This document shows, one piece after another, positions 12,753 through 62,532 of a DNA stretch of 64,000 nt. Each line of letters starts with the position of its first letter. Position 1 is the stretch's first letter. Source of the stretch: Eledone cirrhosa (taxonomy: Eukaryota). The translations under genes were made by a program, and so were the position numbers. Under the pieces are notes generated by a model that was given only the letters and a program-made list of their open reading frames with translations, searched no databases and was not told the DNA's origin. Location: NCBI GenBank assembly GCA_964016885.1, contig OZ024747.1, positions 80,600,001-80,664,000 of the forward strand. The letters are read 5' to 3'.

Positions 12753-15744
<2,992 letters not shown>

Positions 15745-15771
15745 GTATGTGTATGTATATGTATATGTGTT

Positions 15772-15865
<94 letters not shown>

Positions 15866-15879
15866 ATGTATATACATAT

Positions 15880-16135
15880 TTCCACGAACCAAAGTATCGT
15901 CTTCCTGTCTTCCTCCGGTTGCAAGGTTTTTTACAATATTTACTTCTGCGTTCATAGATTGTTTTTTTAGTTTCAGAAGATCCCGTTAAGGGTGAAAGCA
16001 GCGATTCTTTGCTTAAACTTTAATCTGTTATTTTAATAAATATTTGCTCTACCGTTCTTATATATTTCATATATTTTTATCCTTATTGAGCCCTCTTTGG
16101 ATTTTAGTCTTCAAATTTATTATTATTACTATTAT
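15880..16135 (+). mobile_element. (TA)n-embedded HHR element, family D
   Basis: pieces recur at 24768-24890 (head-to-head fusion of two fragments) and 39576-39670 (rc). Confidence 0.8.
15969..16019 (+). ncRNA. type I hammerhead ribozyme with U4>A core change
   Basis: AGTTT-CAGAAGA-tCCC gttaa GGGt-GAAA-GCA gcgattctt TGC-TT-AAACT; stems I, II and III all pair. Confidence 0.75.
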
Positions 16136-16158: not shown

Positions 16159-16229
<71 letters not shown>

Positions 16230-16236
<7 letters not shown>

Positions 16237-19200
16237 GATCGAGTATCGAAAAATCGGCGCACGAGTTAACGAAAAACGAAATTCGATATGAGCGGCAGAG
16301 GGCTCAATAATTCAGATGAATCAGAGCTATAACTATCGTTAAAATACCGTCACATATAGAACAAGTCTACAATCAACCATACGATTTAAAATCGATAAAG
16401 GAAGATTCGGGCCAAACAGATAAAAAATATCAATAAAACAATACGTCAATAATTTAAATGAATGTAAAATCATACCCGGACCCACTAGAAAGGTGTTAAA
16501 TCTAGCTTCATGGGTTTCTGTAAATCCTTAGACAGTACTCTATCAGCTCACATATAAATATAAAAGCCTACTAGAATAAGTGGAACGGAGTTTACGTTGT
16601 CAACGAGTTTTATCCTGGCGGCAAAGGAGTCAACTAGCGGTGAAAAACGCACATGGCATTAGACAAGGGAGATGACCCCTATATCCGCGAAAATAATTCG
16701 AGTGAATGTGGAAATACACATATCGAATTAGAGTGCTCAATAGACATGTTAAAATAAAACAAAAGCTATTCATCACTCAATAGAATCGACAAAATATGAG
16801 CAATAAAATTAACTGGTGGATAGCTATGTCCAGAGCTAAATATATTAGAAAGATCGAGTATCGAAAAATCGGCGCACGAGTTAACGAAAAACGAAATTCG
16901 ATATGAGCGGCAGAGGGCTCAATAATTCAGATGAATCAGAGCTATAACTATCGTTAAAATACCGTCACATATAGAACAAGTCTACAATCAACCATACGAT
17001 TTAAAATCGATAAAGGAAGATTCGGGCCAAACAGATAAAAAATATCAATAAAACAATACGTCAATAATTTAAATGAATGTAAAATCATACCCGGACCCAC
17101 TAGAAAGGTGTTAAATCTAGCTTCATGGGTTTCTGTAAATCCTTAGACAGTACTCTATCAGCTCACATATAAATATAAAAGCCTACTAGAATAAGTGGAA
17201 CGGAGTTTACGTTGTCAACGAGTTTTATCCTGGCGGCAAAGGAGTCAACTAGCGGGTGAAAAACGCACATGGCATTAGACAAGGGAGATGACCCCTATAT
17301 CCGCGAAAATAATTCGAGTGAATGTGGAAATACACATATCGAATTAGAGTGCTCAATAGACATGTTAAAATAAAACAAAAGCTATTCATCACTCAATAGA
17401 ATCGACAAAATATGAGCAATAAAATTAACTGGTGGATAGCTATGTCCAGAGCTAAATATATTAGAAAGATCGAGTATCGAAAAATCGGCGCACGAGTTAA
17501 CGAAAAACGAAATTCGATATGAGCGGCAGAGGGCTCAATAATTCAGATGAATCAGAGCTATAACTATCGTTAAAATACCGTCACATATAGAACAAGTCTA
17601 CAATCAACCATACGATTTAAAATCGATAAAGGAAGATTCGGGCCAAACAGATAAAAAATATCAATAAAACAATACGTCAATAATTTAAATGAATGTAAAA
17701 TCATACCCGGACCCACTAGAAAGGTGTTAAATCTAGCTTCATGGGTTTCTGTAAATCCTTAGACAGTACTCTATCAGCTCACATATAAATATAAAAGCCT
17801 ACTAGAATAAGTGGAACGGAGTTTACGTTGTCAACGAGTTTTATCCTGGCGGCAAAGGAGTCAACTAGCGGTGAAAAACGCACATGGCATTAGACAAGGG
17901 AGATGACCCCTATATCCGCGAAAATAATTCGAGTGAATGTGGAAATACACATATCGAATTAGAGTGCTCAATAGACATGTTAAAATAAAACAAAAGCTAT
18001 TCATCACTCAATAGAATCGACAAAATATGAGCAATAAAATTAACTGGTGGATAGCTATGTCCAGAGCTAAATATATTAGAAAGATCGAGTATCGAAAAAT
18101 CGGCGCACGAGTTAACGAAAAACGAAATTCGATATGAGCGGCAGAGGGCTCAATAATTCAGATGAATCAGAGCTATAACTATCGTTAAAATACCGTCACA
18201 TATAGAACAAGTCTACAATCAACCATACGATTTAAAATCGATAAAGGAAGATTCGGGCCAAACAGATAAAAAATATCAATAAAACAATACGTCAATAATT
18301 TAAATGAATGTAAAATCATACCCGGACCCACTAGAAAGGTGTTAAATCTAGCTTCATGGGTTTCTGTAAATCCTTAGACAGTACTCTATCAGCTCACATA
18401 TAAATATAAAAGCCTACTAGAATAAGTGGAACGGAGTTTACGTTGTCAACGAGTTTTATCCTGGCGGCAAAGGAGTCAACTAGCGGTGAAAAACGCACAT
18501 GGCATTAGACAAGGGAGATGACCCCTATATCCGCGAAAATAATTCGAGTGAATGTGGAAATACACATATCGAATTAGAGTGCTCAATAGACATGTTAAAA
18601 TAAAACAAAAGCTATTCATCACTCAATAGAATCGACAAAATATGAGCAATAAAATTAACTGGTGGATAGCTATGTCCAGAGCTAAATATATTAGAAAGAT
18701 CGAGTATCGAAAAATCGGCGCACGAGTTAACGAAAAACGAAATTCGATATGAGCGGCAGAGGGCTCAATAATTCAGATGAATCAGAGCTATAACTATCGT
18801 TAAAATACCGTCACATATAGAACAAGTCTACAATCAACCATACGATTTAAAATCGATAAAGGAAGATTCGGGCCAAACAGATAAAAAATATCAATAAAAC
18901 AATACGTCAATAATTTAAATGAATGTAAAATCATACCCGGACCCACTAGAAAGGTGTTAAATCTAGCTTCATGGGTTTCTATAAATCCTTAGACAGTACT
19001 CTATCAGCTCACATATAAATATAAAAGCCTACTAGAATAAGTGGAACGGAGTTTACGTTGTCAACGAGTTTTATCCTGGCGGCAAAGGAGTCAACTAGCG
19101 GTGAAAAACGCACATGGCATTAGACAAGGGAGATGACCCCTATATCCGCGAAAATAATTCGAGTGAATGTGGAAATACACATATCGAATTAGAGTGCTCA

Positions 19201-21552
19201 ATAGACATGTTAAAATAAAACAAAAGCTATTCATCACTCAATAGAATCGACAAAATATGAGCAATAAAATTAACTGGTGGATAGCTATGTCCAGAGCTAA
19301 ATATATTAGAAAGATCGAGTATCGAAAAATCGGCGCACGAGTTAACGAAAAACGAAATTCGATATGAGCGGCAGAGGGCTCAATAATTCAGATGAATCAG
19401 AGCTATAACTATCGTTAAAATACCGTCACATATAGAACAAGTCTACAATCAACCATACGATTTAAAATCGATAAAGGAAGATTCGGGCCAAACAGATAAA
19501 AAATATCAATAAAACAATACGTCAATAATTTAAATGAATGTAAAATCATACCCGGACCCACTAGAAAGGTGTTAAATCTAGCTTCATGGGTTTCTGTAAA
19601 TCCTTAGACAGTACTCTATCAGCTCACATATAAATATAAAAGCCTACTAGAATAAGTGGAACGGAGTTTACGTTGTCAACGAGTTTTATCCTGGCGGCAA
19701 AGGAGTCAACTAGCGGTGAAAAACGCACATGGCATTAGACAAGGGAGATGACCCCTATATCCGCGAAAATAATTCGAGTGAATGTGGAAATACACATATC
19801 GAATTAGAGTGCTCAATAGACATGTTAAAATAAAACAAAAGCTATTCATCACTCAATAGAATCGACAAAATATGAGCAATAAAATTAACTGGTGGATAGC
19901 TATGTCCAGAGCTAAATATATTAGAAAGATCGAGTATCGAAAAATCGGCGCACGAGTTAACGAAAAACGAAATTCGATATGAGCGGCAGAGGGCTCAATA
20001 ATTCAGATGAATCAGAGCTATAACTATCGTTAAAATACCGTCACATATAGAACAAGTCTACAATCAACCATACGATTTAAAATCGATAAAGGAAGATTCG
20101 GGCCAAACAGATAAAAAATATCAATAAAACAATACGTCAATAATTTAAATGAATGTAAAATCATACCCGGACCCACTAGAAAGGTGTTAAATCTAGCTTC
20201 ATGGGTTTCTGTAAATCCTTAGACAGTACTCTATCAGCTCACATATAAATATAAAAGCCTACTAGAATAAGTGGAACGGAGTTTACGTTGTCAACGATTT
20301 TTATCCTGGCGGCAAAGGAGTCAACTAGCGGTGAAAAACGCACATGGCATTAGACAAGGGAGATGACCCCTATATCCGCGAAAATAATTCGAGTGAATGT
20401 GGAAATACACATATCGAATTAGAGTGCTCAATAGACATGTTAAAATAAAACAAAAGCTATTCATCACTCAATAGAATCGACAAAATATGAGCAATAAAAT
20501 TAACTGGTGGATAGCTATGTCCAGAGCTAAATATATTAGAAAGATCGAGTATCGAAAAATCGGCGCACGAGTTAACGAAAAACGAAATTCGATATGAGCG
20601 GCAGAGGGCTCAATAATTCAGATGAATCAGAGCTATAACTATCGTTAAAATACCGTCACATATAGAACAAGTCTACAATCAACCATACGATTTAAAATCG
20701 ATAAAGGAAGATTCGGGCCAAACAGATAAAAAATATCAATAAAACAATACGTCAATAATTTAAATGAATGTAAAATCATACCCGGACCCACTAGAAAGGT
20801 GTTAAATCTAGCTTCATGGGTTTCTGTAAATCCTTAGACAGTACTCTATCAGCTCACATATAAATATAAAAGCCTACTAGAATAAGTGGAACGGAGTTTA
20901 CGTTGTCAACGAGTTTTATCCTGGCGGCAAAGGAGTCAACTAGCGGTGAAAAACGCACATGGCATTAGACAAGGGAGATGACCCCTATATCCGCGAAAAT
21001 AATTCGAGTGAATGTGGAAATACACATATCGAATTAGAGTGCTCAATAGACATGTTAAAATAAAACAAAAGCTATTCATCACTCAATAGAATCGACAAAA
21101 TATGAGCAATAAAATTAACTGGTGGATAGCTATGTCCAGAGCTAAATATATTAGAAAGATCGAGTATCGAAAAATCGGCGCACGAGTTAACGAAAAACGA
21201 AATTCGATATGAGCGGCAGAGGGCTCAATAATTCAGATGAATCAGAGCTATAACTATCGTTAAAATACCGTCACATATAGAACAAGTCTACAATCAACCA
21301 TACGATTTAAAATCGATAAAGGAAGATTCGGGCCAAACAGATAAAAAATATCAATAAAACAATACGTCAATAATTTAAATGAATGTAAAATCATACCCGG
21401 ACCCACTAGAAAGGTGTTAAATCTAGCTTCATGGGTTTCTGTAAATCCTTAGACAGTACTCTATCAGCTCACATATAAATATAAAAGCCTACTAGAATAA
21501 GTGGAACGGAGTTTACGTTGTCAACGAGTTTTATCCTGGCGGCAAAGGAGTC

Positions 21553-21556
<4 letters not shown>
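16230..21556. repeat. tandem array of a 615-bp non-coding unit (8 full copies + 405 bp) between (TA)n tracts
   Basis: TAGAAAGATC unit starts at 16231, 16846, 17462, 18077, 18692, 19307, 19922, 20537, 21152; I saw only three inter-unit variants (near 17253, 18981, 20298). Confidence 0.98.
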
Positions 21557-21611
<55 letters not shown>

Positions 21612-22485: not shown

Positions 22486-23456
22486 CTTTCTTTATTTGCC
22501 ACAGGGGCGTACAAAAATGGGACATTACAAGACGTGACGGCGGGGGTTTTACATAAAATCTTTAACAATGATAAATAACAATAAACTATATAAAAATAAA
22601 ACAATTGAAATCCCCATTAGGTAGGGGGGGAGGTAACGCTACTGCGGGGTTGTTTTACGCCCCGTGGATAGAACAACCCTCAGCACCAGGAACACGTTTT
22701 GTAGGTGTTCACGTCTGCCCTCTGTTTATCTTCCTCAACCTACAGGTTTATATACAGAGAAGGCCCATTCACTCGGCCCATTTTTGCTACATTCACCCAC
22801 CTTTCAGCGAATTTATTGGGGTGTAGCACCTCTCTCTCCACTCTCACCTTCCTTCTGAAGTGGTACTTAAAGAAGGGGATGAGTTGTTGTCCTGAGAGAG
22901 AGGTGCTTGCCCTCAGTCCTTTTAACCTCGTCCACCATATTACCTCTTTCGCCATAGTCACCAGACAGAGGAAGACCGCTTCTCCTTCATTCTTAAATGA
23001 AGGCGGCGGGGTGATCCTCACGATGGACTCGGCTGACAACTGGATGCGTCCCACACGTGACAGTAGCTGTTCGACATAATTCCACAGGTCGGTCACCCCT
23101 GGGCACTGAACAATTGCGTGCAGAACGGTTTCGATGTCCTGCTCGCATCTTGGACAGGTCCTTATGGCAGGATCTCTGCCAGGGCGTCCGTTCCTGTAGA
23201 TTTTGTCTCGAACTGGTAGAGCTCCTCGGTAGCACTGCCAGGCCAGATACCTCTGGAAGTTATCCATAGGCCCTGGACGGAAAGTCCTCCCGAACAGACT
23301 CGTCAGTTCGTCCTCTTCGATGCCTAGTGTTTCCCCGAGAACGTCGTCGCACTTATCCTCCACTAATCCCCTATAGAATGTCGAAGTGGAGTCGCCGCTG
23401 ATTGCCGTTTCTGCTTGGTAGAGGGGCGTGAGCGTCTGAAGACACTCTAGGTGCAT
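22486..23456 (-). mobile_element. 5'-truncated L1/Tx1-type LINE (ORF2 C-terminal zinc finger + 3'UTR) inserted in (GATA)n
   Basis: open frame 22740-23456 with AW.CYRGALPVRD, CPRC...ETVLHAIVQCP....LW, and IWWTR; 3' end CCCCTGTGGCAAATAAAGAAA abuts (TATC)n. Confidence 0.9.
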
Positions 23457-24701
23457 ATAGATAGATGGATAGATAGATAAATAAATAGATGTCCGTTATA
23501 TAGACAGATAATTAGCTATATACATAGATAGATGTAGATAGATAGATATACAGAGCTATAGATGAATAGGTAGATAGATAGATAAGTAGTTAGATATACA
23601 GAGATATAAATAGATAAGTAGATAGATAAATATAGATAGGTAGGTAGATAGATAGATGGATAGATAGATGGATAGATAGATAGATGTCAGTTATATAGAC
23701 ATATATTTAGCTACATACATAGATAGTTTCTAGTTTCTTTTACATCACACACGACTACATTAACCCAAGACATCATCAATCATAAGATAGGCTTATATCA
23801 AATTTATCGTAGTAGATATTAGTCCGTATACGATATTTCCTGACCCTTGTAACACTCGTATGTAGTAATATTAATATTTTAACATCTGTCTACATACGCA
23901 CAACAACGTTGCATGCGCAATCCCAATGACTTGAATTATAGCTCCAACCAATGATATCTAAATTATAATAAAGACTTTACACGTTGTTAAATTAAGAGCG
24001 TAACAGCCGAACTATAATGACATTTACTTTACAAAATGGCTCGAAACAAAATTAACATTGCTTGTAATATATAATAAATACACATGAGTAACAGTAATAT
24101 AATACGCAAAATGGAATCTATATAACCCCAAGAAGCCACAGGTTTCAGAATATTAGAGACAACATCTTCATGAACACATCCATTACATAAAGATTTTCCA
24201 TTCCATTAACACAGCTTGCTCATTGAGGTTTACGTCACATTATCAAGACCAAATGTAACAATTACTTTACAAAAATCTAACAAATATATAGGAGAGAGTA
24301 TACTGAACAACACGGTTGCGTAATAGAGAGGAAGGTTTCGTATAATATGAGATAAATAAATAACGACTTGCTGAAGGGTTTACGAAATATTAGTCCTAAC
24401 ACCCAGATAACCATAGACGAAGGGAAACTAGACAAGGAAGACTGCACATTGCAGCAACAACATCCTCATTAGTATATCACAATAGAATGATCCTATTTAG
24501 CCTTCCTTGTAACATTAAAGAAGATGTATACTTGCACCAAAAGACATAATGGCGGTATTGAGACAGCTACGTTCCGTGTCAAGTTAACAAGATATGAGAC
24601 TTGACTCGAAGTACTAATGTTGAGAGGGAAACAATTGGAAAGAGGCGTTTCTTTTGACTTATTTCCATATCCATGGACACTCTATTTGCCTCAATTATTT
24701 G

Positions 24702-39576: not shown

Positions 39577-39729
39577 GTAATAATAATAAATTTGAAGACT
39601 AAAATCCAAAGAGGGCTCGATAAGGATAAATATATATCAGATATATAAGAACCGTAGAGCAAATATTTATGTATATATATGCTTAAAAATGTATGTTATT
39701 TGAATGCTACGGCAATGTAAAATGAATAG

Positions 39730-51088: not shown

Positions 51089-51572
51089 CGACTTACACAT
51101 CTGTGTATATGCATATATTATATACATATCACTATACGAAATCGAAATACAAAGAGACAAGGTAAAGTAAAGACCATTTTAAGGTGAAACGTGAAAACAA
51201 TATTCATGTCTATGAACACTCTAAATTTGGAATGTATATATATATACGCATATATTTAGAAGTTCATTCCGCCAGCGATGATAACTGTCAGAAAAACAAT
51301 CAGACATTCAATACTCCAGGCACGCCAATGACTGAAAATATCACTCACTCACTGTTAAGTCTGTGTGGTAGTAATATTCAATAAACTCTATATTGGGAGT
51401 GTTAGGCCAGCCTCCCGTGACTTAGCTTCAGGTAAAGACGTAAAGAAGTGGGACAATTTCGTATCAAGATAATAATTCTAATTTTCCTGGTATGTTATGG
51501 TTCTATAGCTCAAGCTAAATTGGTGCAGTTGTGGATCCGATTAAATTTTATACATACATAAGTATGAGTATG

Positions 51573-52911
<1,339 letters not shown>

Positions 52912-59856: not shown

Positions 59857-61149
59857 ATGTGTATGTGAGGGGATGTATATGCATGTATGCATCTACATAT
59901 GTATATATGATCTACAACTGACACGACCCGAATCTCTAGGTAGAAAGCTTTTAGCTAAAAACACTTGACAACAAACATTTTATATGTTATTTATATCATC
60001 AGAATATAAACTATTCTATCGCAATTTGTTTAACTATCTCTCTATCCACCAAATCCCAGTTTTTCACATGTATGTACATTCATTAATTCATAACAAAGAC
60101 TTTCCAGAGAATCCTTCATTGCATATTTGATACCAGTTTATAAGAAAATACATCAACATAAAAACTTCTTGAAAAAAAAAAAATAACGTTGGACGAAGTT
60201 CTGTAACATGTTGCATAACTCTGGCCTATATAACCTACTAGAATATCTAAACATGAACAAAATGATTACTGTGCAGATGGAGGAGAAAATGGGTGTGGAA
60301 TTCCAGAGTTCTCTAGGGAGTGGATGTTTTTTGAAAACATCAACCTGGAGAGTGATGCGGTTCACTAGGTTTTAAATTCCCAAGATATCAGCAAGCGTTA
60401 AAAACTGATAAGTAGAAAAATGCTGTGTTATTTTAGATAGAACATGTAGGTGGAGTTGTCTACGAGAATCGAACCGTGTATTTGTTGTATGTTGGACAAT
60501 TATGAATTAAACTTGTATACGTCTACTTGGACAAGCTACAATGTTTTGCCTTCATATATATGTCACGAACTTTGCTGATATTTTAGTAATTATTTAATTA
60601 CCAACGGTATATATATATGTGTGTTTAGTTTTGTGTATGTGTGTATATGTTGCCACGTCTACATCGCTAAACTAAAGGTGCTGTTTTTCATGTAGTGTAA
60701 TTTAGCAGTTCGACAAATACAGGTCGATAACATAATTATCAGGGGTTGATCACTGAAGTTGATACTATCGACTGAATGTTGCTTACCTATCCCTCTGAAA
60801 AACTACAGCAGAGGTATCATTGTAGAGGGTGATGATATCTAGTTACATAACTACCATCGATTAGTCTGCATATTGATTTTGCTCCATGAAACAAATATAA
60901 ACTAACTCAAGTTTTTTTTTATTCCTTCATGCACAGTTGAACATTATACCTACCTACCTATCTACATACATGATGGCTGCACCATATAACATTATTAATA
61001 ATTATCAGTTAATGCTATCGTGCAATGCCTGTGGGTGAAGATTTTTTTTAAAGTGAGGAAGAAGATTTGTTTTAAAGACTGTGCACTGAGCCAGTCTCAC
61101 ACACTGAGCGTCAGTAGCTATAACATACATACATGCACACATACATACA

Positions 61150-62532
61150 TAACGAAATCCGAGCAGTTGATGTTGGAACTCGAAAAATACTGAACAAGAC
61201 CGGAAACTTCCACATCAACAGTGACATAGACCGCCTTTACTTGAAACGTAAGCAGGGAGTCAGAGGCCTAACATCAGTCCAGACAACATTTGAATGTCGC
61301 ATCATATCTCTCCAACAACATCTACGAACCTCGAAGCGTAGGAGCCCGCTTCTCAAGCAAGTCTATCTGCATGAAACAGATAAGATCATGAGAGTTGGGA
61401 AGGAACTCCTTGAGAGATATTCCCTGTGCGATAATCAAAAACTCACACCCAGGGATGTCGCTCAGCAGTATCGCAGTGAATCCATGGATGAAAAACTGCA
61501 TGCCTATCAGCAAAAAATCATGCATGGATATGTTGCCAGGAAGCTCCAGAGTGTGAGTAATATAGATAAGGAAAGTAGTCTATCTTGGACCAACAACCAC
61601 TATATTTGCTCCCACTTTGAAGGATACGCTTTTGCAATCCAAGAACAGGAGATTAGCACGAAATACCTGATTCACAAAAGAGATAGGGATGCAGGCAAAA
61701 CACCTAGATGTGATATCAAGTTCAGACTCTGCAGAACTAACATCGAGGATATCACCCATGTCATCAGCAGCTGCCCAAAGATGTCATCGCGGTACTATTT
61801 ACCTATGAGGCATGATGTAGTGGCCAAAACACTGAACAATGCAGTTCGTAAAAAAGATAGCCCCGATAATAAACACATTAAAAGCTACAGCAATGTGGAA
61901 GATATAATATGAAAGAGTACTGGTGGAATGTTCCAGGAAAAACCCCAATAAAATGCAGGCATAACAGACCAGATATTATGATATGGGACAGGGAGAAGAA
62001 AACATGCACAGTAGTGGAAATTAGCTGCCCAGCAGATGCCAATATAATATCAAAGATTAGTGAAAAGGAGAATATTTATGCAGAACTGATGAGAAATCTG
62101 CAGATACTCCACCCTGATTACACCTTCAGATTTATGCCTGTGATTATTGGGGCACTGGGGTATGTTAGTAACTGCCTCAATACAAATCTTAAGAAGCTAG
62201 GCTTCACAGGAACAGAAAGAACGCAACTAGTTAGGAAATTACAAATATAATCCATTAATGGAACAGTAAAAATTTGTAAAACATTCCAAAAATGTTGCAT
62301 CTAATAACTGCATATACACATGTACAGATACAAAGCATATACACATGCACACATACAACTCAAAATATACACATCCACACATACAATAGCATCCATATCT
62401 ACACATGCATGCATACATACATATCTACCTAGTTGATGTTGTGTAAATTCCAATGAGAGAGTCTTGTGTCTATGTTAGAAACCGACTCTCTCTCTATTGG
62501 TAAAACTTTGTGAAATTATAAAACCAGAAGAA
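61150..62532 (+). mobile_element. 5'-truncated R4/Dong-type non-LTR retrotransposon (RLE endonuclease) in (CATA)n; one frameshift and a premature stop
   Basis: DIDRLYLKR..G.RGL, MHG, AIQEQ.I.T, (C>F)RLC...EDITHVISSC, RHDVVA, NRPDIMIWD..K...VVEISCP, EK..IY, PVIIGALG. Confidence 0.92.

Follow-up and report, generated by a model that had tools for sequence, protein, structure and literature searches.

Two tandem arrays of a 615-bp unit in Eledone cirrhosa

The window, that is the whole stretch of DNA analysed here, comprises 64,000 nt of the Eledone cirrhosa genome (assembly GCA_964016885.1, contig OZ024747.1, positions 80,600,001 to 80,664,000 of the forward strand) and carries two tandem arrays of the same 615-bp unit, which we call family F1. 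The original prediction, made from the letters of the window, had described arrays of about 8.7 and 1.9 copies that share their start base, stop at different internal points and have (TA)n on both sides, and the coordinates confirm this description:

16204..16230, no strand: target (TA)n bordering the fixed end of array 1
16231..21556, minus strand (inferred RNA sense): array 1, 8.66 head-to-tail 615-bp F1 units, with the fixed 3′ end at 16230/16231 and 5′-truncated at 21556
21556..21608, no strand: (TA)n bordering the variable end of array 1
51569..51625, no strand: target (TA)n bordering the fixed end of array 2
51626..52790, minus strand: array 2, 1.9 units, inserted independently and of a second F1 haplotype (7 differences)
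52790..52909, no strand: (TA)n bordering the variable end of array 2

The units of array 1 start at 16231, 16846, 17462, 18077, 18692, 19307, 19922, 20537 and 21152, the array ending at 21556, and those of array 2 at 51626 and 52241, with an end at about 52790. Five of the eight full units of array 1 equal the reference unit exactly and the other three carry one difference each, while array 2 departs from the reference at seven positions, six of which are covered by both its units and are common to both; the predicted near-identity within an array and divergence of about seven positions between arrays were thus found as described. Haplotypes related to that of array 2 occur at L054, L065, L079, L094 and L293. 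The unit has 36% GC and is non-coding, the longest stop-free frame being 62 codons when the doubled unit is scanned. Polarity and the G-U pairs of the consensus fold suggest that the minus strand is the RNA sense.

Since the head-to-tail joint between units was also seen in contigs of three of four sequencing runs (X2, X4 and X5, from three studies, one possibly on the source sample), the tandem arrangement is real and the unit is not a mis-assembly; this check covers the joint between units, and the copy number of array 1 is that of the assembly. A listing of RNA data carrying the unit gave none, and run X1, whose RNA nature is a guess, gave one 144-nt match to the unit at a depth of 2.2; neither was used as evidence.

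Fixed and variable ends across the genome

The junction between (TA)n and the unit start was matched 742 times (375 + 367) in the 3.0-Gb assembly, which is a lower bound on the number of F1 loci, and 0 times by the reversed-pattern control. The 20 arrays chosen only for their DNA similarity all have unit position 1 as their first base, preceded by 4-30 AT repeats. For the anatomy of the insertions we analysed 112 F1 loci, comprising these 20, the two of the window and, for the rest, loci among the first 100 junctions listed for contig C1, with L001-L030 and the duplicate L071 excluded; the far end was readable in 97 of the 112, while the other 15 extend beyond the fetched sequence or meet a gap. 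In the 97 closed loci the variable end falls at unit positions from 13 to 615, with clusters of six each at positions 101 and 236, where the unit is itself TA-like. An early idea placed all ends at a single trinucleotide, but it did not hold once more loci were sampled. The variable end is flanked by TA-like sequence in 67 closed loci and by other DNA in 30, so that, genome-wide, the (TA)n described on both sides of the arrays does not extend to every variable end. Target-site duplications are unreadable inside (TA)n.

Among 92 pattern-selected loci, 34 hold less than one unit, 27 hold 1-2, 23 hold 2-5 and eight hold at least five, some of these values being lower bounds; partial-tandem or multicopy insertions of at least one unit thus make up 58 of the 92, and those of at least two units 31. 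Two older sister families with the same build exist: F2 (about 612 bp), which is 82% alike to F1, and F3 (about 609 bp), which is by eye some 60-65% alike to F1 and has two fixed starts 8 nt apart. First-look candidates number 511 for F1, 2,755 for F2 and 4,830 for F3. The 615-bp repeat is a young, dispersed, non-coding mobile element with one fixed, (TA)n-flanked end. The junctions and closed loci agree with the view taken in the original prediction, in which the arrays are independent insertions into (TA)n with one fixed and one variable end.

Resident autonomous Penelope-like elements

Fragments adjoining F1 loci led to two young autonomous families of Penelope-like elements (PLEs). The 126 scored copies of PLE-A are 98-100% identical in protein, with open frames of up to 784-859 aa, and the 150 scored copies of PLE-B are 96-100% identical, with 713-aa frames. 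L243, L313 and their relatives are very young Hydra-type PLEs of these families (PLE-A, PLE-B; 83,851 and 75,477 first-look candidates). Both families carry DKT, an RW (RWK-like) motif, a CxCX5C linker, CxxC, CxH and a C-terminal endonuclease, which are marks of the Hydra clade as listed in section 11 of PMC8557442, and that clade targets (TA)n. As Pfam recognises neither family, the assignment rests on motifs read by eye, and on these motifs both can be placed in the Hydra clade. In each family (TA)n ends occur at two positions separated by about 85 nt, the counts in 1.79 Mb of selected loci being 44 and 37 for PLE-A and 35 and 25 for PLE-B. Hydra-clade PLEs are described as always bearing a canonical hammerhead (PMC8557442), whereas the canonical core is absent from the stretches scanned, one PLE-A and one PLE-B copy; PLE-A holds a degenerate hammerhead remnant.

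At L212:947-1500 a 554-bp tandem unit joins the 3′ untranslated region (UTR) end of PLE-B to its 5′ UTR and the start of its open reading frame (ORF); it is a deletion derivative and may hint at how F-type elements arise. Neptune-type PLEs, for which a GIY-YIG search gave 10,595 first-look candidates and of which L131-L150 have open frames of up to 938-1096 aa, had seemed the obvious partner, but showed only weak AT-rich matches to the unit and were rejected in that role. Naiad, to which the literature had pointed first, may still be a candidate.

A predicted start module shared by F1 and PLE ends

We observed a common layout directly behind the two ends of PLE-A, the two ends of PLE-B and the fixed end of each of F1, F2 and F3, the sequence beyond each end being read from tandem copies. 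UAU comes first and is followed, after 2-6 nt, by the first strand of a 4-bp helix; an insert that varies separates this from the second strand, and a tail of 5 nt completes the module. The first pair of the helix varies by family (G-C, A-U or U-A), and a third PLE, the reverse transcriptase (RT)-coding L088, has the module about 40 nt inside its end. The UAU triplet could pair with nicked (TA)n. In array 1 the module and a second, upstream copy lie as follows, taking unit 3 as the example:

17961..18075, minus strand: predicted RT-start module (unit positions 500-614), with UAU behind the fixed end, arms at 18060-18067 and 17966-17975 and an inner hairpin between them
17527..17562, minus strand: upstream relic module copy (unit positions about 66-101), resembling the upstream site of PLE-B, not an insertion end

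With 21 copies of F1, F2 and F3 as input, RNAalifold recovered the helix unaided, with two compensatory pairs and with G-U pairs that favour the minus strand. Helix cells are paired in 98.5% of cases, compared to 28-52% in slid controls, and the covariation score was reached by 0 of 500 shuffles, a result that is inflated by relatedness and in which the changes are only two events. The module pattern, which was written from these same examples, has 2101 matches in the 1.79 Mb of fetched, selected loci, compared to seven on the reversed sequence; 38 further module contexts include several at which another repeat, likewise terminated by (TA)n, has its end. F1 and the PLE-B end region also have exact 12-14-mers in common, in collinear order (at least two shared 11-mers arose in 22 of 2000 shuffles), and of five whole-region comparisons only F2 with PLE-B gave a significant alignment (p=0.003). 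With the module placed 3′ of the start, a template would have to cross the unit junction, and we infer that it is circular, terminally redundant or multimeric.

PLE-B is the closest family seen and still no more than a candidate partner, given the helix probability of 0.08 in F1, an alignment over the whole region only between F2 and PLE-B, and a relic module that is not used. Around a module match at L259 and L298 there is another (TA)n-terminated repeat, in which the module is immediately preceded by what looks like a canonical hammerhead core with stems.

Head-to-head fusions at variable ends

Five of the 30 variable ends in other than TA-like DNA join directly to a 5′-truncated copy pointing away, that is an inverted 5′ copy, a hallmark of PLEs (PMC8557442). 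The partner is F1 itself at L040, PLE-B at L031 and L090, PLE-A at L096 and the RT-coding PLE at L088. Internal joins in the opposite sense were found at none of the 30 with a small element library. At L054 and L045 the variable ends merely abut natural ends of neighbouring elements, six further ends are joined to repeats that terminate at (TA)n in their other copies and whose polarity is unknown, and the remaining 17 are unassigned.

Haplotypes within and between arrays

The variants of 261 units from 47 arrays were compared in order to follow how arrays form. In 16 of the 47 arrays at least one variant is present in all the units and in no other sampled array, and this also holds for seven of the 12 arrays of at least nine units, where the private variant is fixed throughout 11-14 units; 'private' is here relative to the 47 arrays sampled out of at least 742 loci. 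Variants of single units are mostly singletons (52 in 261 units) and recur between arrays only three times. Several haplotypes are common to many arrays, 12 of which carry the same two fixed variants. In five arrays variants are found in only some of the units (L263, L278, L280, L291 and L294); the 12-unit array L280 has one in units 1, 5, 6, 7, 8 and 11 only, which copying of a single monomer does not explain. The longest arrays, of 12 units or more, belong to the youngest F1 subfamily, while the 61 loci of less than 98.5% identity reach at most 3.3 units and F2 arrays have 1.1-2.7. A private variant in every unit of most long arrays suggests that one monomer was likely copied repeatedly at insertion, as the original prediction had proposed. 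The template may be a circular RNA or a linear RNA with realignment, two forms between which DNA cannot discriminate.

Ribozyme search and a conserved block

An Rfam scan of the unit gave nothing at or near the gathering level (two matches, E 8.3), and none of F1, F2 and F3 has a canonical hammerhead core on its RNA-sense strand. Therefore F1 is not a retrozyme by the definition used in PMC7229834 and bioRxiv 10.64898/2026.07.22.740005, and the earlier label of a candidate retrozyme-like element is not supported if retrozyme is taken in the strict sense. One block is conserved in the three families:

17700..17780, minus strand: conserved F1/F2/F3 block, half-hammerhead-like (GAAA, 4-bp stem, GUC triplet) and also splice-site-like, of putative role

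Its 3′- and 5′-splice-site-like signals lie about 42 nt apart, and in a parent PLE they could mark an intron spanning the boundary of the pseudo-long terminal repeat, as reported for Chlamys-3 and Penelope. Splicing was rejected by reasoning as a route to a 615-nt circle, as neither a lariat nor a back-splice at these sites gives the unit length.

F1 as a probable non-autonomous PLE

The fixed end, the variable end, the homogeneity within arrays and a structured module common to the ends of autonomous PLEs together suggest that F1 is a non-autonomous PLE, read from the minus strand and copied by the RT of a Hydra-type PLE, and we hold this to be likely. F1 has the features of such an element, being non-coding and dispersed, with a fixed 3′ end and 5′ truncation, head-to-tail copies and inverted 5′ copies, and PLEs with an intact RT and endonuclease and the same (TA)n target, PLE-A and PLE-B, reside in the same genome. 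The (TA)n ends of these PLEs, the shared module and the head-to-head fusions support the earlier suggestion that PLE machinery mobilises the unit.

On this reading, the minus strand would be transcribed across the unit junction, and the RT-endonuclease of a PLE would bind the module and nick (TA)n. The nicked strand would pair with UAU just 5′ of the helix and prime internal reverse transcription, and the RT would then recopy one monomer, either by running round an RNA circle or by realignment on an RNA with redundant termini; the longest arrays made in this way would reach at least 15 units. The other end would be closed by (TA)n microhomology or by meeting cDNA primed from the other target strand, and the latter event would leave head-to-head fusions. 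F1 would then likely move like a retrozyme without being one by definition. As a bolder proposal, which we make tentatively and with more doubt than confidence, a telomerase-sister RT would add whole 615-nt repeats processively to nicked (TA)n, by realignment or round a ribozyme-independent circle, with the start set by a conserved UAU-helix module common to many PLE families and to non-coding parasites. If this is true, the module is a general positioning signal for internal initiation by PLEs and the cause of their two-ended 'tail', and satellite arrays have a route by which they are born full-length.

A number of observations weigh against these readings. F1 is known here from genomic DNA, no transcript having been seen, and sense read-through into a PLE ORF was found at 0 of 112 loci. 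We had predicted that the relic upstream module also serves as an insertion end, and this failed, with 0 genome matches for (TA)n joined at its site. The helix has a low probability in single sequences (0.08 in F1, 0.36 in F2) and is absent from the single-sequence minimum free energy structure of the main PLE-A site; the compensatory changes are as few as two, both on the F3 branch, and the module pattern is circular with respect to the examples it came from. Two of the k-mers shared by F1 and PLE-B are absent from F2 and older F1, and whole-region alignments of F1 with PLE-B (p=0.17), F1 with PLE-A (p=0.84) and F2 with PLE-A (p=0.13) were not significant. To these are added the lack of Pfam recognition of both PLE families, the five arrays with variants in only some units, the sampling that defines a private variant, and the differing start site of the Poseidon element and the presence of Helitrons with long open frames, both described below.

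Alternative explanations

A true retrozyme whose atypical or degenerate hammerhead still self-cleaves and circularises is distinctly unlikely in our view. The GAAA/4-bp stem/GUC block is nearly invariant across F1, F2 and F3 and a core-like stretch with one extra base lies upstream of it in F1 and F2, but F3 does not retain this stretch, both stem I and stem II are weak, the six pairs of the alignment fold come with 0 compensatory changes, Rfam finds nothing and the same letters can be read as splice signals. Helitrons have a conserved CTRR 3′ end, a strong subterminal hairpin and a 5′ TC, and it is their 5′ end that is fixed. The original prediction had named them as its alternative, and a non-autonomous Helitron or other HUH rolling-circle DNA element now appears highly improbable: the minus end of F1 does fit CTRR with an A/T insertion point, and Helitron_like_N has 3,704 first-look candidates in the assembly, some with frames of more than 1,000 aa, but F2 and F3 do not keep the CTRR-like end, the terminal hairpin, folded as DNA, is weak (-2.7 to -3.8 kcal/mol), and it would be the 3′ end that is fixed. 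Such an element would leave the inverted fusions with PLE pieces and the module shared with PLEs unexplained. A fixed 5′ TC end was seen in none of the 97 closed loci. Rolling-circle DNA elements do make tandem arrays (PMC12001565), and short terminal direct repeats, as described for Replitrons (PMC10288648), were not seen by eye in F1.

If F1 is a non-autonomous PLE, its arrays could still have arisen without one monomer being copied over and over. Transcription of PLE loci is believed to yield multi-copy RNAs (PMC11167929), and each array could simply reproduce a multimeric read-through transcript of another long array, to which the haplotypes shared by many arrays would testify, with only 47 arrays haplotyped; in that case, however, daughters could only shorten and new variants would be mosaic, while the long arrays carry variants in all of 11-14 units that are absent from the other sampled arrays, and unit-level variants hardly recur between arrays. 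We regard this origin as unlikely, though worth keeping in mind. An insertion of one unit and a fraction that grew later by unequal crossover or slippage, in the manner of an ordinary satellite, is very unlikely. Partial tandems would supply the direct repeats needed and the five arrays with subset-shared variants would fit, but old subfamilies are short where young ones reach 12 units or more, and most variants at the level of units are singletons. The haplotypes fit a monomer copied repeatedly at insertion better than either later expansion or the copying of long mother arrays.

Relation to known systems

Among described systems, Poseidon PAc of Anolis resembles F1 in its AT-rich targets and in the extension of both strands: in vitro, its RT initiates internally at two sites, to which PMC11167929 traces the PLE 'tail' pattern with one element mapped, and hammerhead ribozyme cleavage is unneeded. 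Its start, however, lies at an AC-rich stem loop 111-118 nt inside the ORF and is not homologous to the target, unlike the target-complementary UAU before the helix in F1. The autonomous Hydra-clade PLEs (PMC8557442) share with F1 the (TA)n targeting, 5′ truncation, partial tandems and inverted 5′ copies; PLE-A and PLE-B, which carry the protein motifs of this clade, also have the start module in common with F1. Hammerhead-less, multicopy non-autonomous PLEs are already known from Chlamydomonas (MRC1; PMC8557442, PMC9940879), and these Chlamys elements are likewise non-coding and head-to-tail, with a microsatellite-targeting parent clade and no canonical hammerhead. They differ in belonging to green algae and to a clade with an N-terminal endonuclease, and in being generally like autonomous families at the 3′ end, whereas F1 has only short motifs and a fold in common with PLE-A and PLE-B.

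Metazoan non-LTR (long terminal repeat) retrozymes, which are proposed to be moved by PLEs via circular RNA, are also low-GC, non-coding, dispersed tandem monomers found as dimers to large multimers (PMC7229834; bioRxiv 10.64898/2026.07.22.740005). Each of their units bears a type I hammerhead and their circles are mostly of 170-400 nt, in contrast to the 615 nt of F1, known from DNA alone and with no canonical hammerhead. Helitron-derived arrays (PMC12001565) are head-to-tail by rolling-circle copying, through a DNA intermediate and with RepHel-dependent termini, whereas the terminal motifs of F1 are not conserved.

No description of the F1 family or of the start module was found in the literature searched, a partial search that had Repbase, Dfam and the supplement of PMC8557442 outside its scope. 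The shared module is the novel and testable part of this work. How PLE RTs choose internal start sites and how tandem insertions originate is largely open, and a short fold behind the ends of two young autonomous and three non-coding families would provide a defined RNA substrate, a target and candidate enzymes. PLE-dependent tandem elements in an animal-type genome would need no canonical hammerhead, so that searches keyed to hammerheads would miss them, and homogeneous arrays of several kilobases can likely be made in one insertion step.

Neighbouring elements and other observations

Three (TA)n-targeting elements are stacked within 700 bp at window positions 15560-16129 and the adjoining array 1, the two neighbours being:

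15560..15707, plus strand: PLE-A-type element terminus, partly inverted
15880..16129, plus strand: truncated 3′ UTR end of the autonomous PLE-B, the candidate partner family, outside array 1

A second PLE-B end lies at 39577-39630 and a broken Hydra-type endonuclease piece at 13779-14051 (plus strand). The window also holds an RTE-like ORF with no Pfam match (61124-61909, plus strand) and a fragment of long interspersed element type with a weak zf-RVT match below the cut-off (22743-23495, minus strand). Elsewhere in the assembly, at C20:3.5-5.2 Mb and C27:13.0-15.5 Mb, Helitron_like_N matches recur every 100-200 kb on one strand, a pattern that suggests very large tandem repeats or segmental duplications, each with a Helitron.

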